Of a DNA stretch of 64,000 nt, positions 1 to 54,008 are shown piece by piece (the first letter of the stretch is position 1; each line of letters opens with the position of its first letter). The notes under the pieces are model-generated. The model searched no databases. It was not told where the DNA came from and saw only the letters and a program-made list of their open reading frames with translations. Both the position numbers and the translations under genes were made by a program. Source of the DNA: Cyanidioschyzon merolae (lineage: Eukaryota); assembly GCA_000091205.1 (NCBI GenBank), contig AP006492.2. One strand, given 5' to 3'.

Positions 1-3000
1 GTTTCGTTGTGCAGAGGGTCACGAGTTCTGGGCGAACCCGAATAACATACGGCGAGGGATTCGTGGCCATGGAACGCAGCGCAAGCCGAGCTGGTGCCCG
101 CACTGCGCGCGTGAGCGCCGCCAAAAGTCTTGAGTCCAGCACGCTGTGCACAGTGCTCGAGAGCCTGCACACAACCAACGACATTCGTCGCTGGTTTGAT
201 GGACTCCGAGCATTTCAAAGCAGCAAGAGTGTCGTGCGGCAGCTCTAAGGGTCATCATGGCGTCGATTGCGCGCATGAAGGGTACGGAAGTTCGATTGTC
301 GAGGCCGGAACGCTAGCCTGGTGGCGGATGACACGGATCACGACGCAGCGCATCGTCGGCTTGAGACCGCCCGGAACGGCAGTTCCTCAGTCTGGGTACA
401 CCTGCATCATCAACACGCTTCGTTGACGCTGGAGAAGAGACTGATGGCGATTGTTGGTAACGTTGTGCGGTGGATGTGGCGCTCGCCCTACAGTTTAAAG
501 TTTTCGGGATTGCATTTTTTGTGCTTAAGGTTGTTTTTAGAAATCGCATCACTTTAGGACTCGAATACGCAACAGTGGGCCGGTACGCTAGATTTTGCGA
601 GCTAGAACTTTGGACACGAGCGCGTCGTAGGGACCCCGTATGGTCGTAAAGGTATGGCGTGCACCCCGTACGGAAACGGAAACGAGACACCGCGCGGTGT
701 GTTGTTATCACGATTGTCAGGTTCTATCATACGTTGTACATAAAGGTCAAATCATGGGACGTCATGGTCGTTCGCCATGTACCGAAAGGAACTGGTCTTA
801 GCGTACATGACCTGCGCTGCAGCCTCGCTGGATTGCTGAACCGCATCACGCCGGGGCATCGCTCCAGACAAGAATCCAATGTAATGAGGCGTACCCACTG
901 GTTTCATGATCCCAAGTGAGCAGCGTTTCAGCACAATGCCCTCACTGAATACGAAATGAATCCCTCAAGGGCTCGCCTGAAAGCAAGAAGCTGGACGCTC
1001 GGGAAGCTCGAACGATTTTCCGGAATTTTGATCGAGCATACGGCGTCTCGATATAGAAGGTGCTTCCGCGCATCGCTGCTGCTAGAATGATACCCAAGTT
1101 AGCCGCGCATCCGCGATTGCCTCGGCATCTGCTCTTCGATCAGCGTACCGTGCGCCATCTCGTGCGTCCGCCTCTGTTCCACGTTCGTCTGTTCTATCTG
1201 TTCCAGCGTGCACCTACGCTAGTGATTTGTTGATTTCGTCCGGATCGCATCGATGAGAATCGAGAACGATGGCGTCCTGGAAGCGTTGTACACTTACGTC
1301 AGTGGAGCATGCGTACAGCGTTTGAGCGCTGCAGCATGCCGAGCGCAATGGATACCCACAACTCAATGCGACATAGCGGCCATTTCCTCATCCAACTCTT
1401 TGAACAAGTTGCCGAATGCAAGTTTTTCGTCAAAGTACAAGTGAAACAATTGGCGGCCCAACACGTTTTCATATATTCCTGCGAAAAATCGTCGACGTGC
1501 GCCGTTTCAACGCCCATTTACGCGCTTGATCAAGCGTACGAAACATCCACCTCTGCTCTATACGGTGCTGAGGACGTCGATATCAAAATCCTGGCGTCGT
1601 CACGCGCCATGCTGATATGCTTCCTGGCATTCAGTGTGCCCGTCCCTCGATAAATTCGGAACCGCGCATACGTTGAGCAGGTTCATCTGCTTTCCAATCA
1701 AGTTTCTGGCGTTGTGCTCTTGGTTTCGAGGCACGACGATCTCCTTGGTGACCGTCGCTCCAGGAAACACGCTCATCACAAAGTGCTTCTCTTCATTGAC
1801 ATAATTCCGTTGAAATTGTGTCCCGTTGCTCCACGCAGGCCTGAGCTTCACTGCGTGCATATAGATCGGTGTTCCGTCGCTCTCCATCGTACTCATATAT
1901 TACGCTTCACGTACTCCTCGTAAACATGAAACATTGAACGAGCTCCGCCGGTGCACTCTGCCATGGTGTTTGAATGCTTCATACTTGCTCGCAGAAACGA
2001 TCTCCTTATCCGCTTCCACCATTGCGTGGGCGGATGGCATGCATGTGATCTTCATTCTCTAAATCCACTTTTTCCATGGTTTCAGACATAATCGGGGACG
2101 ATGGCGCTCGAGCTCGCCTCTTCGATATATGGGTCGAGTATTCCGCAGGTACTTTGCGTCACCTTCTCTGGAGCGGGCACGCCTATGGGCCGCAGCGCGA
2201 CTTTCCGCCCCGCCCTGCGTACGAGCAGGAGTTCCTTAGCTCGCTTCAGGGCTAGCACAGCGAAAGAATGGTTCGTAAACGAACATTGCCACGGATGCGA
2301 ACGACTCGTCTATTGATCTGTGAGCATCAAATTGGTGTTGGATAACAGAAAAGACGCCTTCGACTGGACTGAATCAGAAACAATAGACTGCACCGGAGTG
2401 CAGCGCAAAGTCGAACTATGCTGTGAAATATTGCACGGTTTTTGGGCGATAAAAAGTGACCTCGACATAGCGCATGACAGACGAGCATCGGACGGCGACG
2501 GCACGAAGCATGCATCGACAAAACGTCATATGATGAACGATCTTTTCTGTTGGACGCTTCATAGGCAAGCGCGCGACTGAGTCGGCTACGAGGCCCATGA
2601 TTTCGAAATGCTTGCTCGTCGCTTCTTCATGATGAGCAGATTTTCCCGCTTTGAGTACCCCGAGAAAGGTCTACGATTTCTCCCGAATGAAGTTTCATTG
2701 AGCAAGACGAACACCTGCCGCTCCTGTAATACGCGTTCACGTTTCAGTGCGAAATCAATCGGTTGTTGTTCGATGCACGACGCTCTCGAGCAGAAGCAAG
2801 CCTTATCGCGTTGTCCATCGGTTTCTTTTCTTCACCTTTCATAGCACCGGTAGAGACGCATCATATCGCGTGGCTCGTTTCGACTTCATTTCATCATAGA
2901 TTGTATGAAAAAGAAAGGATTGGCGAAGAGACATTCGCGCGGCAAGCGTTTGATAATTTCTGATTCAGTTGCACAACGTTCAGGGTATTGACTACCAGAA

Positions 3001-3443: not shown

Positions 3444-4035
3444 ATTCTCGAAAATTTACCTTCTAGGTGGAAGGTCTCGCGAGCCGGACGAGCCTGCCGG
3501 GCATACGCCCTGTGCGCCTCTGCAGCGACCGATGCTGTAGGGAGATCTCCGCTGCCCCTCGGCAACGTAATCAATCTGGGGCTCGCAGCGAGTATGCTGC
3601 GTTTCCGCGTCGCGCAGGTCGCAGAGGACTCCGAGCATATCGCTTCGCGCTATCGCAGGCAATACGTCTGTATGCGCATCTTGCAGGCTCCCTGAATGAC
3701 AATGAATCCCGAATCCATATCGTGCAGAACACGCCTCGAGCCGACGCCCTCTGTGGTATAGAAAAGCCGTCCTACGTCCGTGATGCATCCGTACCAAAGG
3801 TAAAGACGCCACTGCGGACTATCAGGGCAGGCATTAGGTGTCCGATAGAACGTAGGAAACGACCAGAATATCCGAGAAAAAGTATAGGTAATGTAACATG
3901 GAAGTAGGGCGTTTGAAGGATACTTCACCTCGCACTAAAAAAACACAAAAAAAAAGTAAGAAAAGAAAAATGCGCGTGATCGGAGAACGCTGGCACAAGT
4001 ACACCTTTTGTCCATGAAAAAAAAATCGGTGCTTC
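3444..4035 (+). repeat. Solo copy R1 of interspersed 'H+T' repeat family: head module (attctcgaaa..ggaaggtctcgcgagccggacgag) plus A-rich tail (cactaaaaaaacacaaaaaaaaag..atcggagaacgctgg..gtccatgaaaaaaaaa)
   Basis: Nucleotide similarity read directly to copies at 9033-9650, 13230-13700, 19176-20020, 41290-41660(rc), 51300-51730(rc); shared head 'ttctcgaaa.t.tacctt.taggtg.aaggtc.cgcgagccggacga' and shared tail 'atcggagaacgctggc..gttttgtccatgaaa'. No ORF. SINE-like (A-rich 3' end). Confidence 0.6.
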
Positions 4036-4435: not shown

Positions 4436-6151
4436 ATGAGTGAGGAGCGTGTGCATCAAAGCTCACCGCCTGCCTGCTTTAGAGGACCAGAATCAACGCC
4501 GTCTGTTTCGTCCACCGACGAACTCGCTGGTACGAAGCGTGAGCACCTTGTAGACTCGGAAAGGAGTTACCTGCAGCTGCCGGCGCTGACGGATCACTCC
4601 GATCTTTCGCTTGCCAGTTTACCCCTATTAGTGCAAGTCTCGGACACCCAGTCAGGGGATAGCGCGAAATCTGACTCGGAGCGAGCTTATGCACTAGTGC
4701 ACGTGTCACCTATTGCGACGGTTCGGGAGGTAAAGCAAGAGCTCGTGAAACAGGGTATAATCCCTGTCGAAGATCTACCTTCGGTGCAGCTGATATTTGG
4801 AGAAGAGACGTTATCGGAAAACTCCCCTTTAACAGAGTACTTCCTTCCGGAACTCTACGACTATTCGGAGGCATTGCTGCGAATGATTGATCAAGGAGGA
4901 CTCGACGTGGAGCAGAAACATGAAGCCATGGAGCGCGCGCTCCAAGTGATAGGGAGTATGCGCGATGGAATCTCCTCGGGCCGCGAGTCCAGCAGCACGA
5001 AGCCATCTGTGGCAAGTGCGGTTCAGCGCGCGGCAGCGCCTGGTAGCGAGCGACTTCAGCTGCCCGGAATCGACATGCTACCGCGGCCGTTAGGAACGAG
5101 CGCCGTCCATCTCGAGAACGAGGGCGCTACCGACGTTGTGGCAACTAGAAACGTTTCACCCGGGAAGGGCGTGACAGCAGCGCCTCTATGGTCGCCTATG
5201 CTGCCGTCTTTGTCGCCCACAGGAGCCAGCGTCATCGCAACCGAACCGTATGCGCTCTGGACGCCAATGCAGCTGAGCACGCCGATGGATATGGCCGAAA
5301 GGTTACACATGCTGGAGCCGAGACTTTTCACACCTGAGGGTGTTTCTGCTGTGGGGGCGTTCGTGCCGCTTTCAGCACGTCTGCGGCAGCAGAACGGGGG
5401 CCATTCCGCCCGTCTTATCGCGCAAGAGCCGGCTCTTCAACCAGGCGGTGGAGCGATAAGTGGCACCTCCTCCTTCGTCGACGCTAGAACACGCTCGCTG
5501 GCAGAAGCAGGACCGCTCGAATCCTCAGTAATACGGGGATCAGAAGCTCCTTGTGACATACCCAAGAAACGTGCAAAATACGCGAGGGCCGCGTCCGGAG
5601 CGCGAACCAGCACAGCGGGTAGCTCGTACTCGAGCGATATGACTGGACAATCACGCTGCGATCAGGACTGCGAATCTCCGCAACCTGGCGACGCAAGCTC
5701 CCTAGCGAGGAGCGGACCCCATGAACACACGGCGTCCGTTCAGAGCGCCGCGAACCAGCGTCTTGTTTCGAATTTGAAAAATTTACCGGATCGATGGGTC
5801 ATGGAAGGCGCCCACGAGGGCCAGGTCCCTGTTCGCGGTCGTAGCCAGGCGAGTCAGGGAACAGAGGCGTCTTCGAGCGACAGCCGCCCAGTACGGCTTG
5901 CGAGCCTGTCGCCCGAAGAGCGCCGCCGGCGCCGCATGGAGCAGAACCGCAAAAGCGCGGAACGCTCGCGCTTGCGCAAAAAGGAACTCGAACAGCGATA
6001 TCGTGCGGCGGTCCGTCAGCTTAGTGAAGAGAATGCTGAGCTGCGTCGACAGCTCGACTCGTTTCGCGAACAAATTCAACGAATGCAGCAGCTACTCGCG
6101 GTGCAGATGCGAGCGACATCCGCACCGCTGGACACACCGTCGCAACAGTAA
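4436..6151 (+). CDS. bZIP transcription factor (basic region-leucine zipper at C-terminus)
   Basis: ATG verified at 4436; C-terminal 'RRRRRMEQNRKSAERSRLRKKELEQRYRAAVRQLSEENAELRRQLDSFREQIQRMQQLL' = basic region (N-x7-R) followed by heptad Leu zipper; rest low complexity Ser/Ala/Pro-rich. Confidence 0.7.
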   Translation: MSEERVHQSSPPACFRGPESTPSVSSTDELAGTKREHLVDSERSYLQLPALTDHSDLSLASLPLLVQVSDTQSGDSAKSDSERAYALVHVSPIATVREVKQELVKQGIIPVEDLPSVQLIFGEETLSENSPLTEYFLPELYDYSEALLRMIDQGGLDVEQKHEAMERALQVIGSMRDGISSGRESSSTKPSVASAVQRAAAPGSERLQLPGIDMLPRPLGTSAVHLENEGATDVVATRNVSPGKGVTAAPLWSPMLPSLSPTGASVIATEPYALWTPMQLSTPMDMAERLHMLEPRLFTPEGVSAVGAFVPLSARLRQQNGGHSARLIAQEPALQPGGGAISGTSSFVDARTRSLAEAGPLESSVIRGSEAPCDIPKKRAKYARAASGARTSTAGSSYSSDMTGQSRCDQDCESPQPGDASSLARSGPHEHTASVQSAANQRLVSNLKNLPDRWVMEGAHEGQVPVRGRSQASQGTEASSSDSRPVRLASLSPEERRRRRMEQNRKSAERSRLRKKELEQRYRAAVRQLSEENAELRRQLDSFREQIQRMQQLLAVQMRATSAPLDTPSQQ

Positions 6152-6398
6152 TCCATTGAGGTCCCTACGCTTTACTTAGAGCTTTTCGTTCGCTTTTAAG
6201 CCGAGACGGCAGGTTGCGCAACGTCATCGAGTTGTAGACGCGCACGAATAGCGAGTGCTTATTTCTCGACACGATGAAACTGGATTCGGAAAATAGATTC
6301 ATGAACTAAAGAGTGAACTGATTCCCGATGGAGGCCGAACGCCGTTCGAAAGTCGAACGACGGCAGTGCACCGTAGTGGCGAGAAGGCCGCCCTAGAC

Positions 6399-8674
6399 TT
6401 AACGACTCCAACTGGCGTACTGACGCTTCCTAGGCTTTCTGGACCGGCCACCCACTACTGATTCCAACTTCTTCTCATATAAATCAACTTTGAGAGGTTG
6501 TCCAATAAAGTTCTCTCGTGTCCGCTCTGGAGGTCTTTTCTCCAGCACCGCGCATCTCCTGATATTGATAGCGGCGTTGAAGTCTCGGTTAACGAACTCC
6601 ATACGCTTCTTGCCATCATTGGTTGTACATACTAATGCAATGAGTCCACGAACTTTTGCCTTCCGTTCCATTTGCTCTCCCGTCAGCGGTCCGTACTTTG
6701 CAATTTCCTCAGGACTCCTCTGGCACTTTTCCATCTCCAGGCTCTGGAGTGTGCACCCCAGTTCATGATGTGTATAAAATGTTCGAAACTCATGGATCGG
6801 TATTGTGACAAAACGCCGTGCACACTCCTTGTACGTTCTTGTCGTCGGAGCTGGCAGAGTTCCTTTTTGGGTGTTCCATCGCCCTGCTCCGTACGCTACT
6901 ACAAGCCTCTGTCTTTCATCCTTCTTCGAGGCGCTCAACTCATTGAAAAAATTCGCGAACGCCCGCTACCTCCCACCATATAGATTCGTACGCAGACGAG
7001 CCCACCGGGGCTCTGTATACTCCTCCCACAGCGCCTCCCAATGGGCAACAAGAACTTCCATGAAATTCCGAAAAGCTGTAAAGTCCGCTCCTCGGCTCGT
7101 CACCTCGCTCATAGCTTCAAGGTGATCCTTCATTCCTGCGTTCCACGTAACGATTTTCTTCCTTGCATTCATTATACCGGATTCTCGGTAGTATCTTGCT
7201 CTGGAGAACCTCCAAAGGCGCATGTCTTTCTGACGTAATTTGCCGTCAGTACCATATTCCGCACGCTTCGGTGCTGTGATGGTTATGATATTCGTGTTCC
7301 CAGGGTCTGCGCCGACGACAAAGTCGTTATCTTGGACTCTCTCCGTCGCAGGACCCGCCTCCTTCTTTTCTTCATGTTTCGCCGCGCCAACGACAAGGTC
7401 GTTATCCCGCACCTCCTGCATTGCAGGACCCGCCTTCTTCTCATCTTCATCCTTCGTGACGGGCGCAGCCAAAGGCGGACCAGCACGATCTTTCTACAAC
7501 CGCCGATAGTGTACACACAAGGCTACTCCATCGGTTTCGATCAACCCAGTGAACCACTTTTGCTCGCTCATTTTGAGACGTTTGAAATTGAAGATATTCT
7601 TCCAGTACGTTTCCCGGTTTTCATCGGAGAACTCCTCCCTGTTACCATTGAACTCCGGACTGATCCCCTTCATGATGCCGTAAAGGACTCTGGAGTCGGT
7701 ACTCACGAAATGTGACTTGATGTTGCACATTGGAACGACGTTGAAGCGCTTCCCCATTGGGACAGCCTTCCGTCTCTCCCACTCTTCATTTTTTTTCCCC
7801 ACTCAGCTTCATCTCTGCTTTGCGCTCGAGTTCTCGGTCCATGAACACGAAATACCGTACGACGAGGCGATCGTATCTTTCCTTATCTTTTTTCATGTCT
7901 GATATCTTGTCTGTTGGATTCGCCAACCCAGTACCGCACGATGCTCTTGAATAGCCGCACGGATTACAGAAGCTTCATTCGTGCTCTCGTTTGACGCCTT
8001 CTCGTCGACAAATTCGACCTCATCTTCACGCTTGCGATCTTTCACGATGTCGTTGATAATCGCCCATTTCCCATGGCGAGAGATGCCCTGGTACAGCGCA
8101 AACACGGCGCGTATCATGAAACGTTCGGGGTTCACTGTCAAATGGTTCTTCAGATTCGTGAAGTACTTCATTGCCCCGTCTGTGTAAATATCCCCGTCAC
8201 CCTTGTATCGAGTACCCTCGAGGCTGTAAAAGGGATGTTTTTCGTGGAGAGCATGCACTAGCTCATTTTGCCTCCTCGTTTCCCCTGTACCAAGCATCAG
8301 GTAACGAATAAAGTCTTATCGAAAAACTCGTCCGGAATCTCGACCGTTTCCGTGTGCGTCACGTCTCCGTACATCTCCCTCGCCAAATGAATCAATCCTG
8401 ACGACACCTCGACAACACGCTTGGAGTACGAGTCGACACGTTTTGCTGATACCCTCTCGCAACTTTTCCCTCTAGGGATCCTTGATATGTCCAAGACGAA
8501 AAGGTTTTCACCATAATATCGTCGTGCTGTCGTCTTTCCTGCAGCTTCTGACGTTGGACCTCTCCGTTTTGCCTCTTCGTCTTGTATTGTGGCTCCGGGC
8601 TTGGTACTTTTGTTCGTTTTTTTTCTGGCAGCCGGCGACACCTGTCTTCCAGGATCCTTCATTTCCATGTCCAT
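6399..8674 (-). pseudogene. Disrupted Fanzor/TnpB-like nuclease ORF (copy A): frameshift at ~8297, frame break 7802-7893, in-frame stop 7494-7496, ~69-bp tandem duplication at 7290-7450, frameshift 6938-6966
   Basis: Pieces align colinearly to copy B, but sit in different frames or are separated by stops. Start ATG 'MDMEMKD' at 8674; stop TAA at 6399-6401. Confidence 0.65.
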
Positions 8675-8900
8675 AGCTTTCCTTTGTTATTTTTTTGAAG
8701 AAGAGCGCACATGAAACGCGTTTGCTGTACACCGCGGGAAAGCACTTGAGTACACGCATTTGAGGGTTGAAACACGGTTGCACTGACAGACTATACGCTG
8801 CTAGGGCTTTAATGCAAATACAACTCGTACGTTATAGCAATACGCTCATATTAAGGATCGCGTTTCCCAGTTACGGCAAGATGCGCTTTGCGTCTCATGC
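6399..8900 (-). mobile_element. Fanzor/TnpB-like (IS605 OrfB family, RuvC nuclease) element, copy A, including conserved 5' noncoding region (8675-8900) and 3' region
   Basis: Conceptual minus-strand protein assembled from ORFs 8297-8674, 7893-8297, 7494-7802, 6966-7472, 6399-6938: RuvC-I '[13 protein letters not shown]' (Asp ~7306-7308), 'TSRGADF', 'RLVVAYGAGRW', Zn-finger region 'EFRTFYTHHELGC..LVC', RuvC-III 'VNRDFNAAINI' (6571-6597). ~50-60% aa identity to copy B at 41969-44094. Confidence 0.75.
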
Positions 8901-9032
8901 ATGCCAGATATGGAGATGCGCGTCTTGACTGCGCTCTAAAATAAAGAGCGGATAGGAACCTCTAAATACCAACTATATAACAATTTCTGGCCCCGCCTGC
9001 GATAAACGTTGAAAAAGGGAAAAGCTTACGGT

Positions 9033-9650
9033 ATTCTCGAAAGTATACCTTTTAGGTGCAAGGTCCCGCGAGCCGGACGATTCTGCCAGGGTTGTGCCTC
9101 ATGGTCGCCGCAGTGCTTCGTGCTGTAGTAAGATCTGAGCAGTTCGTCCGAAACGCAGTTGATTCTGGTACTCGTAGCGGGTATGCTGCACGTGGGCGTC
9201 GCTCTGGTCGCAGTGGACTCCTCGAATATCGTTTCGCGCTGCCACCGGCACTACGTCCGTCTCTACTGTTTCCACGCTCCCGGAATAATAATGTACTCCA
9301 GACCACGTGTCGGATGCATCATAATTCGATCCGACGCCCTCAGAAGCATGGAAAACCCGCCCTGACTTCGTGCTGCATCTGCCGCAGCGGTCTGACCGCA
9401 GACGCGGGTGCCCCAGACAGGCAAGACCCCCGATAGAACGTAAAAGAACGATCAGTATTTTCGAAAGCAAGTCTGAATGATAGACCTTGGTACACCAGCA
9501 TGACGAACGCTTTGTTTCGATTACCAGTACGCATCCCGCAATCTGGGATCCTTCGTCAATGGAACCGGTTTATCAAGAGTAGAGAAGATCACAAGCAGCG
9601 TGGCCGCCGCCTGCCTGACACAGCGGCTACACGGCCTACAGCATTGCTGT
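9033..9650 (+). repeat. Copy R2 of the H-module repeat (no A-rich tail), abutting the 5' end of Fanzor copy A in divergent orientation
   Basis: 'attctcgaaagtataccttttaggtgcaaggtcccgcgagccggacgat..gctgtagtaagatctgagcagttcgtccgaaacgcag' matches R1/R4/R5; downstream 'gcatcccgcaatctgggatcc' matches internal part of R4 (19690). Confidence 0.55.
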
Positions 9651-10445
9651 TTATCGACGCGCTGCCAAACGGACGCGCAGGGACTCGTCGTACGCGTTAC
9701 ACTCTCTCGGTGGAAGCACACGTTTCCAATGGCAACACGACACATGCTTTGGATGCTTGGACGTTATATTCGAAAGGTGCCTTTAGGGCGTTTGGGTGAC
9801 TCGGCACGGGCGCGAGCGCTGTCAAGCAGCGCGGCGCGCGGGCATGCCTCCTCTTCGCACGTCGCTGGCTCGGAAGGTGCACACGCGAACGCTACGTTTG
9901 AACGCTGGCGACTGATGAGCGCACTCGGAGCACTACCCGTTCTGATCTACGGTGTATGGCTGTTCCGGCAGCCGCACGAGCACGCAGAGCCGCCGCCTCC
10001 GTACCCGTATCTGCGGAGGCGGGTGCGCGATCCAGCTTTTCCCTGGGGCAACCACGAGCTGCTGGGCACGCCCTGGGATCATGAGTCGCCCCACGCTCAC
10101 ACAGACTCTGAGTGAGCATCACGGACTGAGGGGACGCGTTGGTTTTCTAGTCTGGCAATATGCCCGAGCATCGCGTGTAACGGCTTCGATCGCGGATACA
10201 TCCTAATCATCAGGCTTATCGTCACGGAAGCTTTTCATGGAAATCCTATCTCGAACTCAGGTAATGCTGCGGATGTGGACGGGTGCTCGCGTGGTCTCTT
10301 GGGTCTCGTCACCTCTCGCCCGGCATACAGAGCATGCTACGGACGGGCGCGTGCCCATCAGGAACACAACGTGCCTGTGATCTCCCGTTCCCGTACGCGA
10401 TGCTCGTTTCTGTAGCGCGCTGGATGCAGCCTCCACCCTGGTAAC

Positions 10446-11876
10446 ATGCGTAAAATGCTCGACACGATGTTGAAGAACGCTCCCGAGCGTCCCGCGGCCT
10501 CCGATATCCGCATCCCCGGTGAGCCAGGAGGCACCGGCACCAGCCGCGCGCGCGCACATGCACCCCGAATCCGCGCCCCTGAGCATGGCTCGCTGTCGAC
10601 GAGCGGGCCTCTTCCTTCCAGTGCCTTGGCAAAGCTGGGTTTCTCAACGAAGGTTTCCGGGTTGCGGGCGCTTGTGCTGCGCGCTGTCGCAGGCAGAGGC
10701 GGGCCCGGGTGCGTTTCGTTTGCTCGGGCGCGCTTTCGCCGTGTAGGTCCGCCGGACGGTGGCACCGGTGGCGACGGCGGGAACGTCATCGTTCAGGTCA
10801 GTGCGTCCGTGAGCTGCTTGCCTTCTCATCGGCACGTGGTCGTCGTGCGTGCAGAGAATGGTGCTCCAGGCCAACGCTGGGAACGGAGTGGACGTCGCGG
10901 CAAGGACGTGCGCTTCGTGGTGCCTCCAGGCACCTGGCTGCGCTGGCTGCGTGATCCAAGCACCATCGACAGTAGTCGCCCGCATGTGTTTCTGAATCTG
11001 AACGATACCGAGGATGACCAGCGCATGAACGACGCGGTACAAGCTCTTTCGGCCTTGGAGCCGTCTTGCTTTGCGCGAAACGATGCGTCTGATTCTGTTA
11101 AATTTGATGTGGACGACGGAGCGGCAACGTCGGCGTCCTCGGATTTCCCGGCGTCCGTCAAGTCCGCACCCGCCCATGTTTTGGTGAAGAGCAGCGTTGT
11201 TGCTGCCGCAGGCGGTAAGGGAGGACACGGAAACACCTTTTATCAGTCGTCGGTGAATCGCTCACCAAAGCAAGCGCAGGCGGGTCTTGAGGGCGCCGAA
11301 CAGCTCGTGCTGCTCGAGCGGCTCCCAGTCGCTGATATCGCCATCGTCGGTGCCCCGAATGCCGGCAAGTCGAGTTTGTTGGCAACATTGACGCGTGCGC
11401 GGCCTGAGATTGCGCCAACCCCATACACCACGACGGAGCCGATGCTGGGCGTACTCGAAGATCACCAGACCTGGATGCGGTCGATCCTGGTGGAGATTCC
11501 CTCCAAGACCCTGGAAGACGCCCAGCAAAGCCCGGAACTTGTGTGGCACTTATTTCGCGCGTGCCGTCATGTGGTTGCAGTGGTCGACCACCAGCGTACC
11601 GCGGGCAATACGCGACTGCTGCGGGAGCAGGTTCGTGCTCTGCAACGCATGGTCGCACCTCGAGTCCTCGCTGGTTGCGTCGTGCGTTCGCATTTGCTCC
11701 AGGGCCAGCCACAAAAGGACCAAGCGATGCCGCAACACATGGAAGGCGTGGCGTTGCTTACGCGTTTAGCGGATGTGCGCCAGGCTTTACTCAAACTAAC
11801 CACAGAGCCACCCTGGGTGCTTCACACGGACAATGAACAGGGAACGCGGCATTCGCAACGGATGCTTGGGCGTTGA
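10446..11876 (+). CDS. Obg/CgtA-family GTPase-like protein (Obg glycine-rich N-domain + P-loop); probably organellar
   Basis: ATG at 10446. 'FRRVGPPDGGTGGDGGNVIVQV..RAENGAPGQRWERSGRRGKDVRFVVPPGTW' = Obg fold; G1 'IVGAPNAGKSSLLATL', G2 Thr 'YTTTEPMLGV'. Canonical G3 DxxG and G4 NKxD not evident. Confidence 0.55.
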   Translation: MRKMLDTMLKNAPERPAASDIRIPGEPGGTGTSRARAHAPRIRAPEHGSLSTSGPLPSSALAKLGFSTKVSGLRALVLRAVAGRGGPGCVSFARARFRRVGPPDGGTGGDGGNVIVQVSASVSCLPSHRHVVVVRAENGAPGQRWERSGRRGKDVRFVVPPGTWLRWLRDPSTIDSSRPHVFLNLNDTEDDQRMNDAVQALSALEPSCFARNDASDSVKFDVDDGAATSASSDFPASVKSAPAHVLVKSSVVAAAGGKGGHGNTFYQSSVNRSPKQAQAGLEGAEQLVLLERLPVADIAIVGAPNAGKSSLLATLTRARPEIAPTPYTTTEPMLGVLEDHQTWMRSILVEIPSKTLEDAQQSPELVWHLFRACRHVVAVVDHQRTAGNTRLLREQVRALQRMVAPRVLAGCVVRSHLLQGQPQKDQAMPQHMEGVALLTRLADVRQALLKLTTEPPWVLHTDNEQGTRHSQRMLGR

Positions 11877-19175: not shown

Positions 19176-20020
19176 TATTCGAGTGTTACGCTTCTGGGGG
19201 CAGGAGGCCCCGCGAACCGGACGAGTCTACCGGGCTTGCGCTCCGTGTGCCTCTGCATTGCCGGGCTCAGGAGCAAGACGCAAGGAACTCGTTCGCCACG
19301 CAGTTCATTCTGGGACTAGGAGCGGTTGGGCTGTCTCTGGGCGTCGACCTGGTCACGGAAGTCTCCAAGCATATCGCTCCACGCTGCCGCAAGCTGAAGA
19401 GCTGGCTGCGCAACTCGCACGCTCCCAGCAGGACGAAGAGGCCGGATTCCTTGTTCAATGAACCACGCCTCGAGCCGACACCCCCAGTGGTGTGGCAAAG
19501 CCGTTCTGACTGGGTGCTCCATTCGCACCGGCGGTACAGACGTTACGGTGGGTGCTCACTGGATGCGCTCAGTCCACGACAGATCGTATCGAGCGACCAG
19601 TCCATCCGAGAGCAAGGATCGGAGATGGAACTTGAAGGTACACTGAAGAATAATGGACGCTTTTCTTAATCTCAATATGCATCCCGCAGTCTAGGATCCA
19701 CGCTCCAAGTAAACGTTCTGGATGAACAAACGCAATCCACAAGGGTCGTCTGCGCCGCTGTGCCGCTCCGGGAACGCGGCAGCGATCCATGCAATCGCCC
19801 AGCTCGCTTGCAACGCATGGCGATCGTCCCGGAGGCGCGGCCGGAGCGGCAGCTCAAGGCAACGAAGGGCGAGGCGAGGCAGCGCGGTGCGGCAGGCGCC
19901 ACCGGCGGCGATCGCATCGATCACATGCACCGCGCACTGAAAAACCCCCCAAAAAGAAAGGCAAAATGCGCATCATCGGAGAACGCTGGCCTGAGTGAAC
20001 GTTTTGTCCATGAAAAAGAA
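19176..20020 (+). repeat. Solo copy R4 of the H+T repeat family (longest copy, ~845 bp, extra internal segment)
   Basis: Head 'ggaggccccgcgaaccggacgagtctaccgggc', body 'cacgcctcgagccgacaccc', tail 'cactgaaaaaccccccaaaaagaaaggcaaaatgcgcatcatcggagaacgctggcctgagtgaacgttttgtccatgaaaaag' match R1/R3. Confidence 0.6.
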
Positions 20021-40817: not shown

Positions 40818-41289
40818 CGCACACGTCCTCTCAAGCGCTCTCGTTCGTCGAGGTACTCGGGCACTGCACGAGCGAATGTGTGCAGTAGTTGACTGCGCCA
40901 GGAACGCACTACGAAACGACTTGCTCAAGGCGGCAGTCCGTAACGTTACTGCACAGAACATGAGTAATAAGCGTCGTCCCGAGGGTACGAAGTCGTCTGC
41001 GGCAGTCGACGACTGGCGGCGACGCGGCGATTGCGGCGCTTCTGGTTGACGATTTCTCTTTGTCTTGACAAAACGTTTACGTTGACCACGGATCACAGAC
41101 TGCGGGATGGATATCGGTTGTCGACAAAGCATCTGTCATACTGCGCCCTACCTCCAAACTCCATTTCGCATATCTCCTTTCGGATATACTGGCTGTTTCG
41201 CACGTTCCATCGTGCGGCGGTTTCTGGCTTTGAGCACCCGCCGCCGCGCCCCAACCATTTACACGGATGCATCACGGAGGCAGACTGAC

Positions 41290-41660
41290 ATTGCCATACC
41301 GTATGAGGCATCGGCTCGAGGCGCCGTTCCTTCAACACAGACTCCACGTGCATAGTCATTCTGGGAGCCTGCAAGTTCCGCACCCAGACGTACTGTCTGC
41401 TGCAGCGCGAAGCGAAATACCAGGAGTCTACTGCTACCAGGGCGACGCCCAAACACAGCCTAACTGCCCCTAATCCCAGAATGATTTGCGTTTCGGACGA
41501 GCTGCTCAGACCTCACTACAGCACCAGCTACTGGGTAGCGTACGGAGCGCCTGACCCGCGGACTCGTCCGGCTCGCAGGACCTTCCGCCGAAAAAGTAAA
41601 CGTTCCGCAGTATGGAAAACTTTTCCTCCTTTTATCGTTCATCGTAGAGAGGGAATGAAA
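41290..41660 (-). repeat. Copy R5 of the H-module repeat (no tail), abutting the 5' end of Fanzor copy B in divergent orientation
   Basis: Reverse complement reads 'gaacgtttactttttcggcggaaggtcctgcgagccggacgagtccgcggg..gctgtagtgaggtctgagcagctcgtccgaaacgcaaatcattctgg..acgtctgggtgcggaacttgcaggctccc..cctcgagccgatgcc', matching R1/R2/R4. Confidence 0.55.
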
Positions 41661-41759
41661 TATATATTTGCTGGTAAATCGAGAGTCTCTGTACAATTTT
41701 TTCATATAGCGCGTTCCATACGCGCACCCGGGAGATCAGGCCGTCACATGACACGACGG

Positions 41760-44160
41760 GCATGACGCCGCTGAAGAGAAACGTAATATGGACTTGTTGA
41801 CCTGTTCCTCGAACGTATGCGTTGTAACGGTGTTGAAGTCAGAGCAAAATACAGTGTTTGATCTCAATACTATTTCAACCCTCAATTGGTTGTTCCCAAA
41901 AGCTTTTTCGCGGTTTACAGCACAAGCGTTCAAAGTGCGTTCGTTTTCGAGAATAAAAAAGGAAAGTTATGGACAAGAGAGTCGAGGCCTGCGGAGGCCA
42001 CGTGTCACCAGGTTCGACAAAACACTGGAAAACAGTGCGGGGCCCAGAGCGACAGGAGAAGGGGAAAGAGCAAAACTGGGAGCTCGCACATCAACTGCAA
42101 CTCGAAAGACGATACAATGACGAGAACGTAGAGAGAGCCTGTCTTCCAGGCCATCTCAGGGCTCCTTACAGAGAAAAGATGCAGGAGGGCATCAGAAACC
42201 GCGTCCTATCGTAATCCAGGAGTATTTGAAAAGCTTCTCTTTGATTGATGCATTTGGTGAGGGACCTTTACCATGACGTTACGGACATCAAAACAGTCGA
42301 GGTTCCGGAGGAGTTTTTCAGTGTGACCTTCATCCGCCAACTGATGCTTGGCCCAGAGCGAACCTCGACGATAGACGATCGAGTGCGAGCCCTACACCAA
42401 ACATATGCCTTCTACCGCTTCAACGGTTCTCGATACAAGGGTGACTTGGGCATTGACACCTACAGGGCGATGAAGTATCTCGAAGACTTGAAGAGCCACC
42501 TGATCGAAAACCTCGAAAGCTTCATGAACTGCTCCGTCTTCGCGCTCTACGATGGCCTCTCTGTCCGCGGGAGATGGGCGATCATCAATGGCATCACGAA
42601 CGATCACCAGGATGAAGCGGAGATAGAATGCTTCGGTGCGAAAACATCGTACAGGTGTACGTATGAGAATTCTGTGATCTGTGCAGCCATTCAGGAGCAC
42701 CTTGCGGTACCGGGGCTTGTCAACCCTGCAGAAAAGGTATCAGAGATGAAAAGAGATACGAAAAGATTCATCCCCTCATTCTGCGCTATTTCGTGTACCT
42801 GAACCGAGAGCTCGAACGCAAGGCGGAGATGCAGCTGGGTGAAAAACGAAATGGAGCGCCGGAAAAACGGAAGGCTGCGCTTCTGAAGAAGCGCTTTCAC
42901 GTCGTTCCGATACGCAACACCATGTTGCACTTCGTGACCATCGACTCCAGCGTCCTTTACGGCATGATGCAGGAGATCAGTCCGAAGTTCGACGTCAGCT
43001 CGGAGGAGTTCACGGGGATAGACTGGGAGACTCATTGGAAAAATGTCTTCGATTTCAAAGGTATCAGGAAGAGCAACACAGAAGCATTCGCAGGCAAGAT
43101 CGAAACCGATGGGGTATGCATATGTGTACACTCCAGGCGCTTGAGCAGGCATCGTCATATCCTGTCATCGTTTTCGCCCTGGACGAAGCATCAAAAGAGA
43201 GAGGCGATCCATATGCTGTACGAGCCGCAGAAGAGCGACTTTGTCGTCGGCGTGGACCCTGGAAAGAAGGATATCATGGCCGTCGCTGTGCCATAGTATG
43301 CAAAAGACGGTATCAATGCCAACTTACGCCAAATGGACATGCGTATGTTGAGGTTCTCGACGGCTAGATTCAACAGAGAGTCGGGGATGATAGGTGCCTT
43401 GAGGCAAACCGAGGCTTGGAACTCAAGATTGAAGGAGCACCTGGAAGCGGTCAGCAAAGTGACGAGCTGCGGAGCGGACTTTCGGACCTATCTGGAATTC
43501 ATGGAAACGCACGCTGCGCATGATGGGGACCTGTGGAAGGAGTACATAAAGCCCCGATGGGTTCGTCTGCCTATGGACCTGTACGGAGGGGAGCAGCGTG
43601 CATTCGCCAATTTCTTCAATGAGTTCTGCGCCCTCAAAGAAGGCAAGAGTCAAAGGCTCGTAATAGCGTACGGAGCAGGGAGCTCGTTGCCCGAAAACGG
43701 GAGCACACCGGCACCGTCGACACAAGCGTTCATCGAGTGCGCAAAGCGTTTTGTCACTGTCGTAATAGTCGAGTTCCGAACGACCTGCGTGCACCATGAG
43801 CTGGGCTGTACACTCCAGAAGGTCAGGATGGGGACACAGCCGCCGAGCTCTTCGGGGAAAGAAAATCACGGGGAGCGAACAGAGCGGCCGATGCCACAGA
43901 GGGCGCTAGTTCGAGGACGCCTTCTGTTGGACACTACAGTCAGCGCCATGAAACGCAGGGAGTTCGTGAACCGAGACTTCAACGCCGCCATGAACATCAG
44001 GCGATGTGCTCTGCTGAAGACGAGACCCCCGGAGCTTACGCGAGCGAACTTCGAGGGTAGCTTCCCGGGCTCGACGTGTGCTGGGGGAAACTGAATCCGA
44101 CAGCAGTCGACCGGTCAGAAAAGGATGGGAAGCGTCTGCGAGTGGGGAGATATATATTAA
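41760..44160 (+). mobile_element. Fanzor/TnpB-like (OrfB family, RuvC nuclease) element, copy B, with conserved 5' leader and 3' noncoding region
   Basis: ORFs 41969-42214 / 42245-42802 / 42793-43296 / 43333-44094 are colinear with copy A. RuvC-I 'DFVVGVDPGKKDIMAV' (43247-43293), 'TSCGADF', 'RLVIAYGAGSS' (43666-43680), 'EFRTTCVHHELGC', RuvC-III 'VNRDFNAAMNI' (43969-43995). Upstream 41810-41968 is ~80% nt-identical to 8675-8860(rc). Confidence 0.75.
41969..44094 (+). pseudogene. Fanzor/TnpB-like nuclease ORF (copy B), nearly intact: one frameshift near 42748-42795 and one in-frame TAG at 43297-43299
   Basis: '..IMAVAVP*YAKDGINANLRQMDMRMLRFSTARFNRESG' aligns to copy A '..[36 protein letters not shown]' across the TAG, so the stop replaces a sense codon. 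Start 'MDKRVEAC' ATG at 41969. Confidence 0.6.
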
Positions 44161-51849: not shown

Positions 51850-52750
51850 TAGTTAAGGGGCACAAGAAGAAGGAACTGGTATATATAAGCATCAACGTTG
51901 CGTTCGAACTACTTTGCAAAGCGCGGTGGCGGCGCTCGGACAAGGTTTCTCGATAACAGGAAAGAAATACCGGAAACGTTTATCCGGACGATGGAGACCG
52001 ACGGGATGCCAACCAGCATGCACCTTGCAGCACGTATGCCAGAGTCGAGCAGCCAGACTCATTTCCAACCGTTCAAGGTTGATGAACAAACAGAGACTTT
52101 GTGGTCGGGGTCGATCCGTGTCACTCGGCATCATAGCCGTCTCCGTACCCCTGCATCAAGAGGGCAGTGCTAAAGACCTACAAGGAGAGCAGATAAAGCA
52201 GCTCGAATTTTCCAGTGCTCGATATGATCGGCAGTCGGGCATGGTAGACGCCAGGCGGCATACCGTCCAGAGGAATGGTTGCTCGAGAGCCCATCTCGAC
52301 GCCCTGAGGACGGTGGCGCGCAGAGGGTAACGCTTTGTGCGCCTCATGCAGAGGGGGAGCTCATGAGCGTCAAACTGGCTCCAGCGGACGATCTTTGACA
52401 AGAACGCGTGGTGCCGAGCAGGGCACGCACATGGTGCTGGCTCCGCAGAGGCGAGAAGCTCGTGTTCGCAGACTTTGTGGTTGATGTGGGAAACGAAGTG
52501 ACCGCCCAGTCGGGTCGATTGACGGTAGCCTATAGCGCTGGACCTACTCCAGCTCACAAAGTCTGCAGTGATGCTCGCTCCCGTCGAGAGCTTGCTACAA
52601 GTTCAGGGATTGATTCTGCACGATTTCGACCGACGCATTCACACCGTCATGCACGCAGCACGATCTCGGGTACAGGCTGAAACTTGTCGAGAAGAGGCGA
52701 TTGAATTAGAGACCGTTGCACGAGATGGTGTGCGATACGCTGCTTGAACG
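51850..52750 (+). pseudogene. Degenerate remnant of a third Fanzor/TnpB-like copy (C)
   Basis: Frame-hopping matches to copies A/B: 'FLDNRKEIPETFIRTMETDG' (51930-51990) ~ 'FDFKGIRKSNTEAFAGKIETDG'; 'DFVVGVDP' at 52097-52120; 'LEFSSARYDRQSGMVDARRH' ~ 'LRFSTARFNRESGMIGALRQ'; 'RLTVAYSAGPTP' ~ 'RLVVAYGAGRW'; 'SARFRPTHSHRHARS' ~ 'HEFRTFYTHHELGC'. Confidence 0.55.
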
Positions 52751-54008
52751 CCCGACGGCGAGGCAATCGGAGATGCAGAGACTGCTGTGGTGTGCTTTCA
52801 CCAGCCACAATGTGCTCAGGTTCTTTCTGCATCGCGAGTTGATCGCCTCGATACACATCTGGCAATGTCTCGTGGTTCCGAAGCGCACAGCGGCTGTGTC
52901 GAGCGAACTTTCGGGAAAATCGTCTAGTTCTGCTTGTTGGCATTGCACTGACTGCCTGCAAGCTGTCGGTAAAAGCGCATCGGTGTTCAAGAACTGTCCG
53001 ACTGAATGCCCGCTCGGAGCATAGCGCTGGTACGGTATGGGTGAGCAATCGAGCGAGGCTGAAGCGGCCTGCTCATACAACGGGATCGGTTTCTCGGGGC
53101 AGAGGATGATTGGTAATGGTGTTCGAGTATTCGATCCTATTGGGCATAGGTTGTTGAGAAAATCCATGGGTCGCCCTAATGATCGACGGCAGTTCATGTG
53201 TCTACCTGAAGAAATATTCTGTTAACGCCAAATCTCAGGTGTTCGGTGAACGAAAACTGTTAGCTCTAGCGTGCCCTATAAAAAATGCAGTTTCGAAGTT
53301 TGGCTGAAAGGTTTTGATGCTCCCCCAATTTTCAGGCGTTTGGTGAACCAGAGCTTGTAACTCTTGACATACCCATAGAAAGCAGTGTCTACGGCAGCGT
53401 TATGAGGCAGCGCTTCGGGGACGCATGCGAACGTGCTGTCCCCAGTAGTTACGTAACAAAACGCTCCTGATCGACGTCTACGCGTCAGCACTCGTGCTGA
53501 CGCGACTACCGTCTGCGGCAAGTTTCGGACGACATGCGCATCCTGGATGCCAGCTTGCGAAATCGTTTATCTGCAAGACGTTTAGTTTTCTGAAAGCATC
53601 AGACCGTTTAGGAAGAAAGTGCTGTCACCGAAAGGCGGCGATCATCATGCCTTGCTTTTCGAGCGCGAAAGACTCGGCTCGTTTCGCTCGCCGGACGCGG
53701 GCGACCGTGAGAGGCTCCTCAAACGCATTAAAGCCGCATCACGAAACGTACGTGCGCTTTCGTGCAGGCTCCATGTCTTGGTATTCCAATCAATGCAGCA
53801 CCAACTACACCATCGCTGTCCTTTAAAGTGTAGGGTCGGGGTGAGCGTGACATTCAGCGCAGTATATTCGAATCCCCGACGGATCACCCAGCTTTGAATG
53901 GGGTATCCCGCTGGTGTCAGTTTTCCATAGGTCGCCCTCATCTAGACCCCTGCGAGCGCACGCAAGTAAACCTGCTCTACAAAGAACGTCTACATAGAGT
54001 CGTGAGCC

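Follow-up and report, generated by a model that had tools for sequence, protein, structure and literature searches.

Among the RuvC nucleases of the TnpB/Cas12 type, Fanzor1 proteins form the eukaryotic branch, and Fanzor function was established in 2023. A Fanzor1 element of Cyanidioschyzon merolae, CMe-1A, was described a decade earlier as having ~150 copies of ~3 kb and no TIRs (Bao and Jurka 2013, Mobile DNA 4:12, PMC3627910). In that description, the 5' 635 bp of CMe-1A are 95% identical to TE-N2_CMe (PMC3627910).

We analyzed a 64,000-nucleotide stretch of nuclear DNA from C. merolae 10D (the window), which encodes four proteins identical to C. merolae 10D proteins, and conclude with high confidence that about 6335-9625 on its minus strand is an old, inactivated CMe-1A insertion with a destroyed Fanzor1 gene. 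By organism, architecture, and TE-N2 relationship, compared with the published description, this ~3.3-kb element (copy A) is CMe-1A, with nothing essential different: both are TIR-less C. merolae elements of ~3 kb with many diverged copies, a 5' ~635-bp module shared with TE-N2_CMe, and a single Fanzor1 ORF that is intact in some copies, an arrangement reproduced here. Identity to the 35-copy consensus is 88% for copy A; the paper gives "about 80%" for the family (PMC3627910). The proliferated family that a sequence-only reading had proposed is thus the ~150-copy CMe-1A, and the occurrence of this Fanzor1 family in C. merolae has been known since 2013 (PMC3627910). With Fanzor function published as well and copy A dead, the identification in itself is of little weight.

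The ends of element A, set where homology ends, show that the span first proposed, 6399-8900, was too short. At the 3' end, most of ~60 loci lose homology at 6334-6344. At the 5' end, homology reaches 9575 and continues for ~40-50 nt in the alignment, leaving a fuzzy boundary. The resulting length agrees with the published size of "around 3 kb" (PMC3627910), and the element lies between a bZIP gene that ends at 6151 and a gene that starts at 10446. TIRs are absent, the 5' leader is modular, and the 3' end is sharp and closed by a 10-bp hairpin. In the 5'-junction alignment all CMe-1 copies are alike downstream from ~8925, so that a core leader upstream of the ORF (8675-8930, minus strand) is present in every copy; upstream of this point there are four or more classes of sequence that bear no relation to one another. 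The class found in element A is a TE-N2_CMe-like module (8940-9625, minus strand) that is common to copy A, a second copy in the window (copy B), and solo copies at 3444-3789 and 19205-19699 of the window and in loci L021 and L032; it is missing from most other CMe-1 copies.

Folding revealed a structured 3' tail that extends over the stop codon (6338-6466, minus strand) and may serve as an omega-RNA scaffold or mark the transposon end. At the element boundary it terminates in the 10-bp hairpin CGTCGTTCGA-CTT-TCGAACGGCG (6340-6362, minus strand), and a second subfamily retains a 10-bp terminal hairpin in another register. For the tail consensus, the folding energy is -56.8 kcal/mol (z = -3.6). 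Individual copies range from z = -4.5 (L038) and -2.5 (L001) to -0.8 for copy A, which is no better than its shuffles. With default settings, RNAalifold found essentially no consensus structure in the 3' alignment of 251 columns, and ribosum scoring gave a multi-helix model. Covariation by pair counting was no better than in shuffles, 61 to 428 of 500 of which reached the observed values. The tail shows no extra conservation, its post-stop part differing from the consensus by 19.4% versus 15.5% at third codon positions, and an Rfam search of 6000-9800 returned no match at E≤1. In described systems, omega-RNA lies at the transposon end and overlaps the stop codon (PMC10432273), and the right-end RNA of Fanzor1 extends about 15 nt past the element (PMC10711439). 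The position of the tail in CMe-1 is consistent with this arrangement, but the case for reading it as omega-RNA is weak.

The hairpin-ended tail could instead be a cis-acting transposition signal, comparable to the subterminal hairpins of IS200/IS605 or the Helitron 3' hairpin, and not an omega-RNA scaffold. The hairpin is placed exactly on the element boundary and kept by two subfamilies in differing registers, the 3' end stays fixed while subfamilies exchange 5' sequences, and TE-N2_CMe is reported to have ~70 copies without a Fanzor gene (PMC3627910). However, we saw no Y1/HUH or Helitron Rep/helicase gene in the element, the Helitron-type CTRR end is absent, and the two roles are compatible, the right-end sequence serving both in TnpB and Fanzor elements (PMC10432273, PMC10711439). 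We regard a purely cis-acting role as a credible reading that is nonetheless somewhat improbable.

Assignment of the protein to Fanzor, also proposed from the sequence, held up, although not by the most direct means. The direct Pfam check suggested in the earlier reading gave no TnpB/Fanzor match, either with the five ORF pieces of copy A or with proteins A and B after frame correction, and only a transitive profile route works for copy A; phmmer with copy A against the PDB returned noise only, and a Pfam scan of the close relatives P0001, P0002, and P0030 returned nothing. A profile of eight sequences that include copies A and B (alignment A1) matched PpFz1 (E = 1.8e-16) and SpuFz1 (E = 1.1e-12) in the PDB, with no other match at E≤1, and the remote homologues P0032 and P0033 exceed the Pfam gathering score for PF07282 (Cas12f1-like_TNB/OrfB_Zn_ribbon). 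With profile E values between 1e-12 and 1e-16 for the solved Fanzor1 proteins, and with 71 loci in metagenomes that are related to it, the similarity far exceeds what chance would give. The fold was evaluated on an intact relative of 752 aa, P0001 (69% amino acid identity to copy A), not on copy A itself. In a Foldseek search of the PDB, the AF2 model of P0001 (pLDDT 65.4, pTM 0.56) had Fanzor1 structures as its best seven matches (E = 4e-15 to 4e-12; TM(target) up to 0.70). The overall fold is thus like that of SpuFz1 (8GKH), GtFz1 (9CER), and PpFz1 (9CF0), despite a sequence identity of only 12-14%. Pre-computed annotation alongside the close relatives lists PF26935 (DUF8286).

Copy A further shares with solved Fanzor1 proteins a DPG RuvC-I, an alternative RuvC-II glutamate, an NRD RuvC-III, and the TDG motif of the WED domain. 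The motifs quoted in the sequence-only reading sit on the minus strand at 7287-7322, 6753-6791, and 6561-6593, in the colinear order RuvC-I, alternative-glutamate/zinc-finger region, RuvC-III. At the first, GADPG (GVDPG in copy B) aligns with DPG of PpFz1 and DPN of SpuFz1, bearing out the claim of a Fanzor-type RuvC-I; DPG here is a criterion for Fanzor 1 and 2 and pro-Fanzor TnpB (PMC10711439). At the second, EFRTFYTHHELGC carries the alternative RuvC-II glutamate and then a degenerate first zinc-finger half. Within H-E-FRTFYT-H, six residues separate the E from the column in which PpFz1 and SpuFz1 have Cys1, the spacing of the E-x6-CxxC rule for Fanzor (1 and 2) and pro-Fanzor TnpB (PMC10711439). 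At the third, VNRDFNAAINI is the RuvC-III motif as claimed, its RD aspartate aligning with the NRD of PpFz1 and SpuFz1. The TDG motif, characteristic of Fanzor1 (PMC10711439), lies in IETDGVALC (7515-7541, minus strand), and in A1 the IETDG residues I, E, and D do not vary. Unlike solved Fanzor1 proteins, CMe-1 has a repeat-expanded disordered linker ahead of RuvC-I: a 75-bp tandem duplication of 1.9 units (7309-7450, minus strand) directly precedes the motif and doubles a "...QDNDxVVGA" strand, the number of units differs among copies (one in copy B, four in P0001), and the linker has pLDDT <50 in the AlphaFold model of P0001.

Could the gene be a relic of some other RuvC family, such as Fanzor2, an IS607 or IS605 TnpB, or a viral or bacterial Cas12-like gene? 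The absent direct Pfam match and the missing zinc finger (see below) could be read that way. Bacterial TnpB (IS200/IS605, IS607) and Cas12 belong with it to the RuvC D-E-D nuclease superfamily, and TnpB is likewise encoded by mobile elements with a structured 3' end. We consider such an origin very unlikely. Among PDB matches of the profile with E≤1 there is no chain of Fanzor2, TnpB, or Cas12, and there is no direct sequence match to TnpB or Cas12. The Foldseek match that follows the Fanzor1 seven is a Cas12 at E = 2.5e-3, and all Cas12 folds are as weak or weaker (E≥2.5e-3, versus 4e-15 for Fanzor1). The protein, at ~760 aa, is far longer than TnpB/Cas12, with Fanzor1-specific REC/WED insertions and the TDG motif. 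Neither a TnpA partner nor an adjacent TnpA serine recombinase accompanies element A, and the family is multi-copy in a eukaryotic host. We conclude that the single gene of element A coded a Fanzor1 protein.

The Cys/His zinc finger that had been read from the sequence is not there. In copy A the four canonical Cys positions are occupied by H, L, L/V, and N, and in the family consensus by H, L, L/V, and S/T; H and L stand at the two positions in EFRTFYTHHELGC, and both positions lack Cys in the degenerate second half, LIALVC (6627-6644, minus strand). The CCCC finger of the NUC/TNB domain (CxxC...CxxC, PF07282) is absent from copy A, the consensus, and the whole CMe-1 clade, where non-Cys residues replace that of solved Fanzor1 proteins. 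The fingers of P0030 and P0031 are likewise degenerate, and CxxC...C...C is kept only by the remote P0032 and P0033, the two homologues above the PF07282 gathering score. This finger is conserved in SpuFz1 and TnpB (PMC10432273), and Bao and Jurka count the C4 finger among the strictly conserved features (PMC3627910); the CMe-1 clade is an exception. Since the loss extends across the clade, even intact CMe-1 members might not be active nucleases.

Homology to SpuFz1, GtFz1, and PpFz1 suggests that an intact member would bind a transcript of the structured 3' tail, that ~15-20 nt of this RNA reading into flanking DNA would act as the guide, and that the D-E-D RuvC site would cut matching DNA. 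An intact CMe-1 Fanzor1 (e.g., P0001, from a thermoacidophilic alga) could then be a natural zinc-finger-less RNA-guided nuclease whose omega-RNA is the ~130-nt hairpin-ended tail, and the swapped 5' leaders and Fanzor-less TE-N2_CMe could reflect an undescribed TIR-less mobilization mechanism. We offer this combined proposal tentatively and judge it rather unlikely. Compared with solved Fanzor1 systems, the CMe-1A element is TIR-less, its omega-RNA is only a candidate, and copy A is a pseudogene. Three features that do not appear in the portion of the 2013 paper drawn on here could interest those mining Fanzors for genome editing: the clade-wide loss of the CCCC finger despite coding constraint, the stable fold of ~130 nt whose terminal hairpin is conserved at the element end, and the presence of at least one intact 752-aa gene in hot-spring metagenomes, the host being moderately thermophilic.

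The pseudogene state of copy A follows from comparison with the 35-copy consensus. The five colinear minus-strand pieces proposed as parts of one protein (8297-8674, 7893-8297, 7494-7802, 6966-7472, and 6399-6938) were all recovered, and they do belong to one frame of ~760 codons after correction (6399-8674, minus strand; 88.3% identity to consensus). Their frame layout, however, had to be revised. Pieces 2 to 5 share one frame that is broken up both by TAG codons in frame and by two 1-nt indels, piece 1 is a mosaic of two frames, and a sixth coding stretch (7792-7932) lies in a different frame. Codon by codon against the consensus, copy A has premature stops at 8472-8474 (TAC>TAG), starting at 7496 (AAG>TAG), and starting at 6968 (CAG>TAG), all on the minus strand, and six 1-nt frameshifts within 7792-8623 (about 8623, 8497, 8445, 8314, 7930, and 7792), at least nine disabling lesions in all. 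Copy A thus has no intact ORF, and because its gene is destroyed by frameshifts and stops, it yields no functional protein. The earlier reading had recognized neither this state, nor the missing zinc-finger Cys residues, nor the 2013 publication of the family.

An alternative explanation would be that the lesions are sequencing or assembly errors, or that TAG is read through, and that copy A is really functional. All three premature stops are indeed TAG. However, an orthologous locus from a hot-spring metagenome (L070; independently assembled, 99.1% identity) shares all three TAG stops with copy A and lacks only two of its six frameshifts, those at about 8624 and 7929, both peculiar to strain 10D; copy B has TAA and TGA stops too, and readthrough would not rescue six frameshifts. 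On the consensus comparison and the L070 lesions we reject both versions, which have next to no chance of being right. An equally negligible chance attaches to the pieces being exons of an intact, expressed Fanzor gene: they are colinear, lie on one strand, and jointly rebuild a full-length protein, but each break consists of just one in-frame TAG codon or a 1-nt indel, and we reject introns since copy A aligns base for base to the consensus ORF with no intron-sized insertions. Matsuzaki et al. are said to have found in 2004 that C. merolae has only ~26 genes with introns, which also counts against this reading.

At the level of the family, the 35-copy consensus restores an ORF of ~762 codons, and a long stop-free frame is present in L001 only (819 codons); an intact ORF is kept by the consensus and at least one environmental copy. 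Divergence at codon positions 1, 2, and 3 is 10.1, 8.5, and 15.5% across 29 copies and 9.6, 8.2, and 15.0% in copy A. The higher divergence at third positions than at the other two indicates purifying selection on the protein during the spread of the family. In place of the two relatives of copy A previously counted in the 64 kb, the window contains one full-length relative and two short divergent relics. Copy B (41063-44139, plus strand) is more divergent than copy A (70.7% identity to consensus) and likewise has no intact ORF, with two frameshifts and five premature stops. Its homology ends at 44139, short of the terminal hairpin, the element being either 3'-truncated or too diverged there. 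The relics lie at 1024-1992 on the minus strand and 52130-52910 on the plus strand.

Exact matches of four long ORFs in the window to C. merolae 10D chromosome proteins (BAM80178, BAM80182, BAM80189, and BAM80191; the first, a bZIP factor, at 4436-6151) indicate that the window comes from the nuclear genome of this red alga, a hot-spring species. Translation confirmed the five minus-strand ORF pieces (1 to 5: 8297-8674, 7893-8297, 7494-7802, 6966-7472, and 6399-6938) from which the sequence-only reading had reconstructed a Fanzor/TnpB-like protein, here called copy A. The peptides quoted there were all located on the minus strand: a RuvC-I peptide with DPG (7287-7322), the zinc-finger-region peptide EFRTFYTHHELGC (6753-6791), and the RuvC-III peptide VNRDFNAAINI (6561-6593). 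When the whole region was translated, a single frame was found to hold pieces 2 to 5, with in-frame stops between them and a section (7792-7932) where the coding sequence runs on in a different frame. Piece 1 combines two frames, and the stitched conceptual protein has 760 residues.

The Pfam search that had been proposed as a check was negative when run directly on copy A; no TnpB/Fanzor domain was found in the ORF pieces or in the frame-corrected proteins of copy A and its relative, copy B. A phmmer search of PDB sequences with copy A also returned nothing relevant. A large protein collection contained 33 homologues. The closest (P0001; 752 aa) is 69% identical to copy A; at the remote end, P0032 and P0033 exceed the Pfam gathering score for PF07282 (Cas12f1-like_TNB, earlier named OrfB_Zn_ribbon). 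A profile of eight sequences (copies A and B and six homologues), searched against all PDB sequences, had exactly two matches, the Fanzor1 proteins of Parasitella parasitica (E = 1.8e-16) and Spizellomyces punctatus (E = 1.1e-12), with which DPG, DEF-RT, and NRD align residue for residue. P0001 was modeled with AlphaFold2 (pLDDT, 65.4; pTM, 0.56), the repeat linker being disordered. In a Foldseek comparison of this model with the PDB, the best seven matches were SpuFz, GtFz, and PpFz structures (E = 4e-15 to 4e-12; target-normalized TM up to 0.70), followed by Cas12 proteins at E ≥ 2.5e-3. Fanzor traits described by Yoon et al. (PMC10711439) are DPG at RuvC-I, an alternative RuvC-II glutamate, and, in Fanzor1, a TDG motif in the WED domain. 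In copy A, RuvC-I carries DPG, the alternative glutamate stands six residues ahead of the first zinc-finger position, and the WED-domain motif reads IETDG (7515-7541, minus strand). Profile, model fold, and motifs thus support assignment to the Fanzor family, with the corrections that the gene is a pseudogene, that its zinc finger is not intact, and that the direct Pfam test is negative.

From 71 related hot-spring metagenome loci, 35 near-full-length copies were aligned, and their majority consensus restores an ORF of ~762 codons; identity to this consensus is 88.3% for copy A and 70.7% for copy B. Outside the variable repeat, copy A has six 1-nt frameshifts (about 8623, 8497, 8445, 8314, 7930, and 7792) and three premature TAG codons (starting at 8474, 7496, and 6968), and copy B has two frameshifts and five stops. 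The same insertion as copy A was found in an independently assembled environmental strain (locus L070), 99.1% identical over 3.4 kb (window 6300-9700 compared). The lesions of copy A are real, because all three stops recur in L070 together with four of the six frameshifts, a sharing that excludes sequencing error, stop-codon readthrough, and introns between the pieces as sources of the breaks. Copy A makes no functional protein. The two frameshifts missing from L070 (about 8624 and 7929) arose after the strains diverged; decay of this insertion continued after the split.

The "Cys/His zinc-finger region" of the sequence-only reading was correctly located, but it is not an intact finger, since the four aligned Cys columns hold H, L, L/V, and N in copy A. 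The finger is likewise degenerate in copy B, the family consensus, P0001, and the homologues P0030 and P0031; among the sequences compared, cysteines at these columns survive only in P0032 and P0033. In contrast to the CMe-1 clade, SpuFz1 and ISDra2 TnpB both have a CCCC zinc finger (PMC10432273), a feature that Bao and Jurka list as strictly conserved (PMC3627910). Given this loss, even intact CMe-1 members might be inactive.

Copy A belongs to a family already known. As described by Bao and Jurka in 2013 (PMC3627910), there are about 150 copies of CMe-1A, the Fanzor1 family of C. merolae; identity to the family consensus is about 80% for each, and some are still intact. The element is around 3 kb long, lacks TIRs, has undetermined TSDs, and shares its 5' 635 bp at 95% identity with TE-N2_CMe, a separate ~70-copy element. 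Compared with this published description, the present findings agree on every point, so copy A is a member. No terminal inverted repeats were seen at element A, which with its 5' module reaches about 9625 and totals roughly 3.3 kb. The core common to all CMe-1 copies lies downstream from about 8925; upstream (8930-9100 equivalent) there are at least four unrelated leader classes, each in several loci. The class found in copies A and B also occurs alone, as TE-N2_CMe-like modules with no Fanzor ORF attached at 3444-3789 and 19205-19699 (minus strand) and in metagenome loci L021 and L032. Across CMe-1 copies, a fixed 3' end is combined with modular 5' swapping. In two metagenome loci (L019, ~3644-3700; L032, ~1763-1861), a TE-N2-like element starts about 50 to 100 nt after the CMe-1 3' hairpin end, which suggests an insertion preference at existing ends or the origin of the composite CMe-1A. 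Within the gene, a 75-bp unit occurs as a duplication at 7309-7450, immediately ahead of RuvC-I; copy B has the unit once, copy A twice, and P0001 four times. This 25-aa unit lies in the linker predicted to be disordered by AlphaFold, directly before the RuvC-I strand (P0001 residues ~372-472).

The 3' boundary is sharp: homology to copy A ends at 6334-6344 in most loci, in copy A directly after a 10-bp hairpin, CGTCGTTCGA-CTT-TCGAACGGCG (6340-6362), plus TT. In a second subfamily the end has other sequence (CAACGTTTTTC...GAAAGGCGTTG), and a 10-bp hairpin forms there as well, with its register shifted. Copy A is a degenerate Fanzor1 gene, and the TIR-less element around it ends in a hairpin on the 3' side. 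In the consensus, the final ~127 nt, which overlap the stop codon, form a structure with a long closing helix, inner hairpins, and the terminal hairpin (−56.8 kcal/mol; z = −3.6); z is −4.5 for locus L038, −2.5 for locus L001, and −0.8 for copy A. That Fanzor1 proteins are DNA endonucleases guided by omega-RNA was demonstrated in 2023; the omega-RNA comes from the transposon end, can overlap the stop codon, and runs into flanking sequence (PMC10432273; PMC10711439). By homology, intact members would bind RNA from the structured 3' tail as a ribonucleoprotein and would cut DNA matching roughly 15 to 20 nt beyond the terminus, with cleavage by a predicted triad of D (DPG), E (DEF), and D (NRD). 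We regard the tail as a putative guide RNA source only tentatively because covariation on 33 copies was no better than in shuffled controls, conservation of the tail does not exceed that of third codon positions (19.4% versus 15.5% divergence), and the tail had no match in Rfam. The terminal hairpin could equally act in cis, marking the element's end for an unknown transposase, instead of or besides an RNA role. In the flank 3' of the ends (window 6333-6337 and equivalents), the first bases after the terminal GGCGTT are nonrandom across loci, often YGGTG, TGTTG, or GATGGTG, which reflects either a real terminus 4 to 7 nt farther out or a preference for certain target sites.

Almost every environmental copy is disrupted too; L001 is the only one in which a long open frame remains (819 codons from stop to stop). 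P0001 corresponds to L001 5001-7259 (JGI 3300050362), so that hot-spring metagenomes contain at least one apparently intact 752-aa member, whose gene lies between 2OG-Fe(II) oxygenase and GRAM/VASt genes. Across 29 copies, divergence from the consensus at codon positions 1, 2, and 3 is 10.1, 8.5, and 15.5%, a pattern indicating that part of the family's diversification took place under coding constraint. This agrees with the argument made in Bao and Jurka's account of the family that the protein has a function (PMC3627910).

Searches of the window by tblastn and with a profile against its six-frame translation found three relatives. Copy B, the second full-length copy (41969-44088, plus strand), has about 50% amino acid identity. 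The others are short and very divergent, comprise the RuvC half only, and have 28 to 39% amino acid identity to CMe-1 proteins: relic C at 1024-1992 (minus strand) and relic D at 52130-52910 (plus strand). Bao and Jurka's entry for C. merolae records one Fanzor1 family only (PMC3627910); relics C and D may be what is left of Fanzor1 families that were older or distinct.
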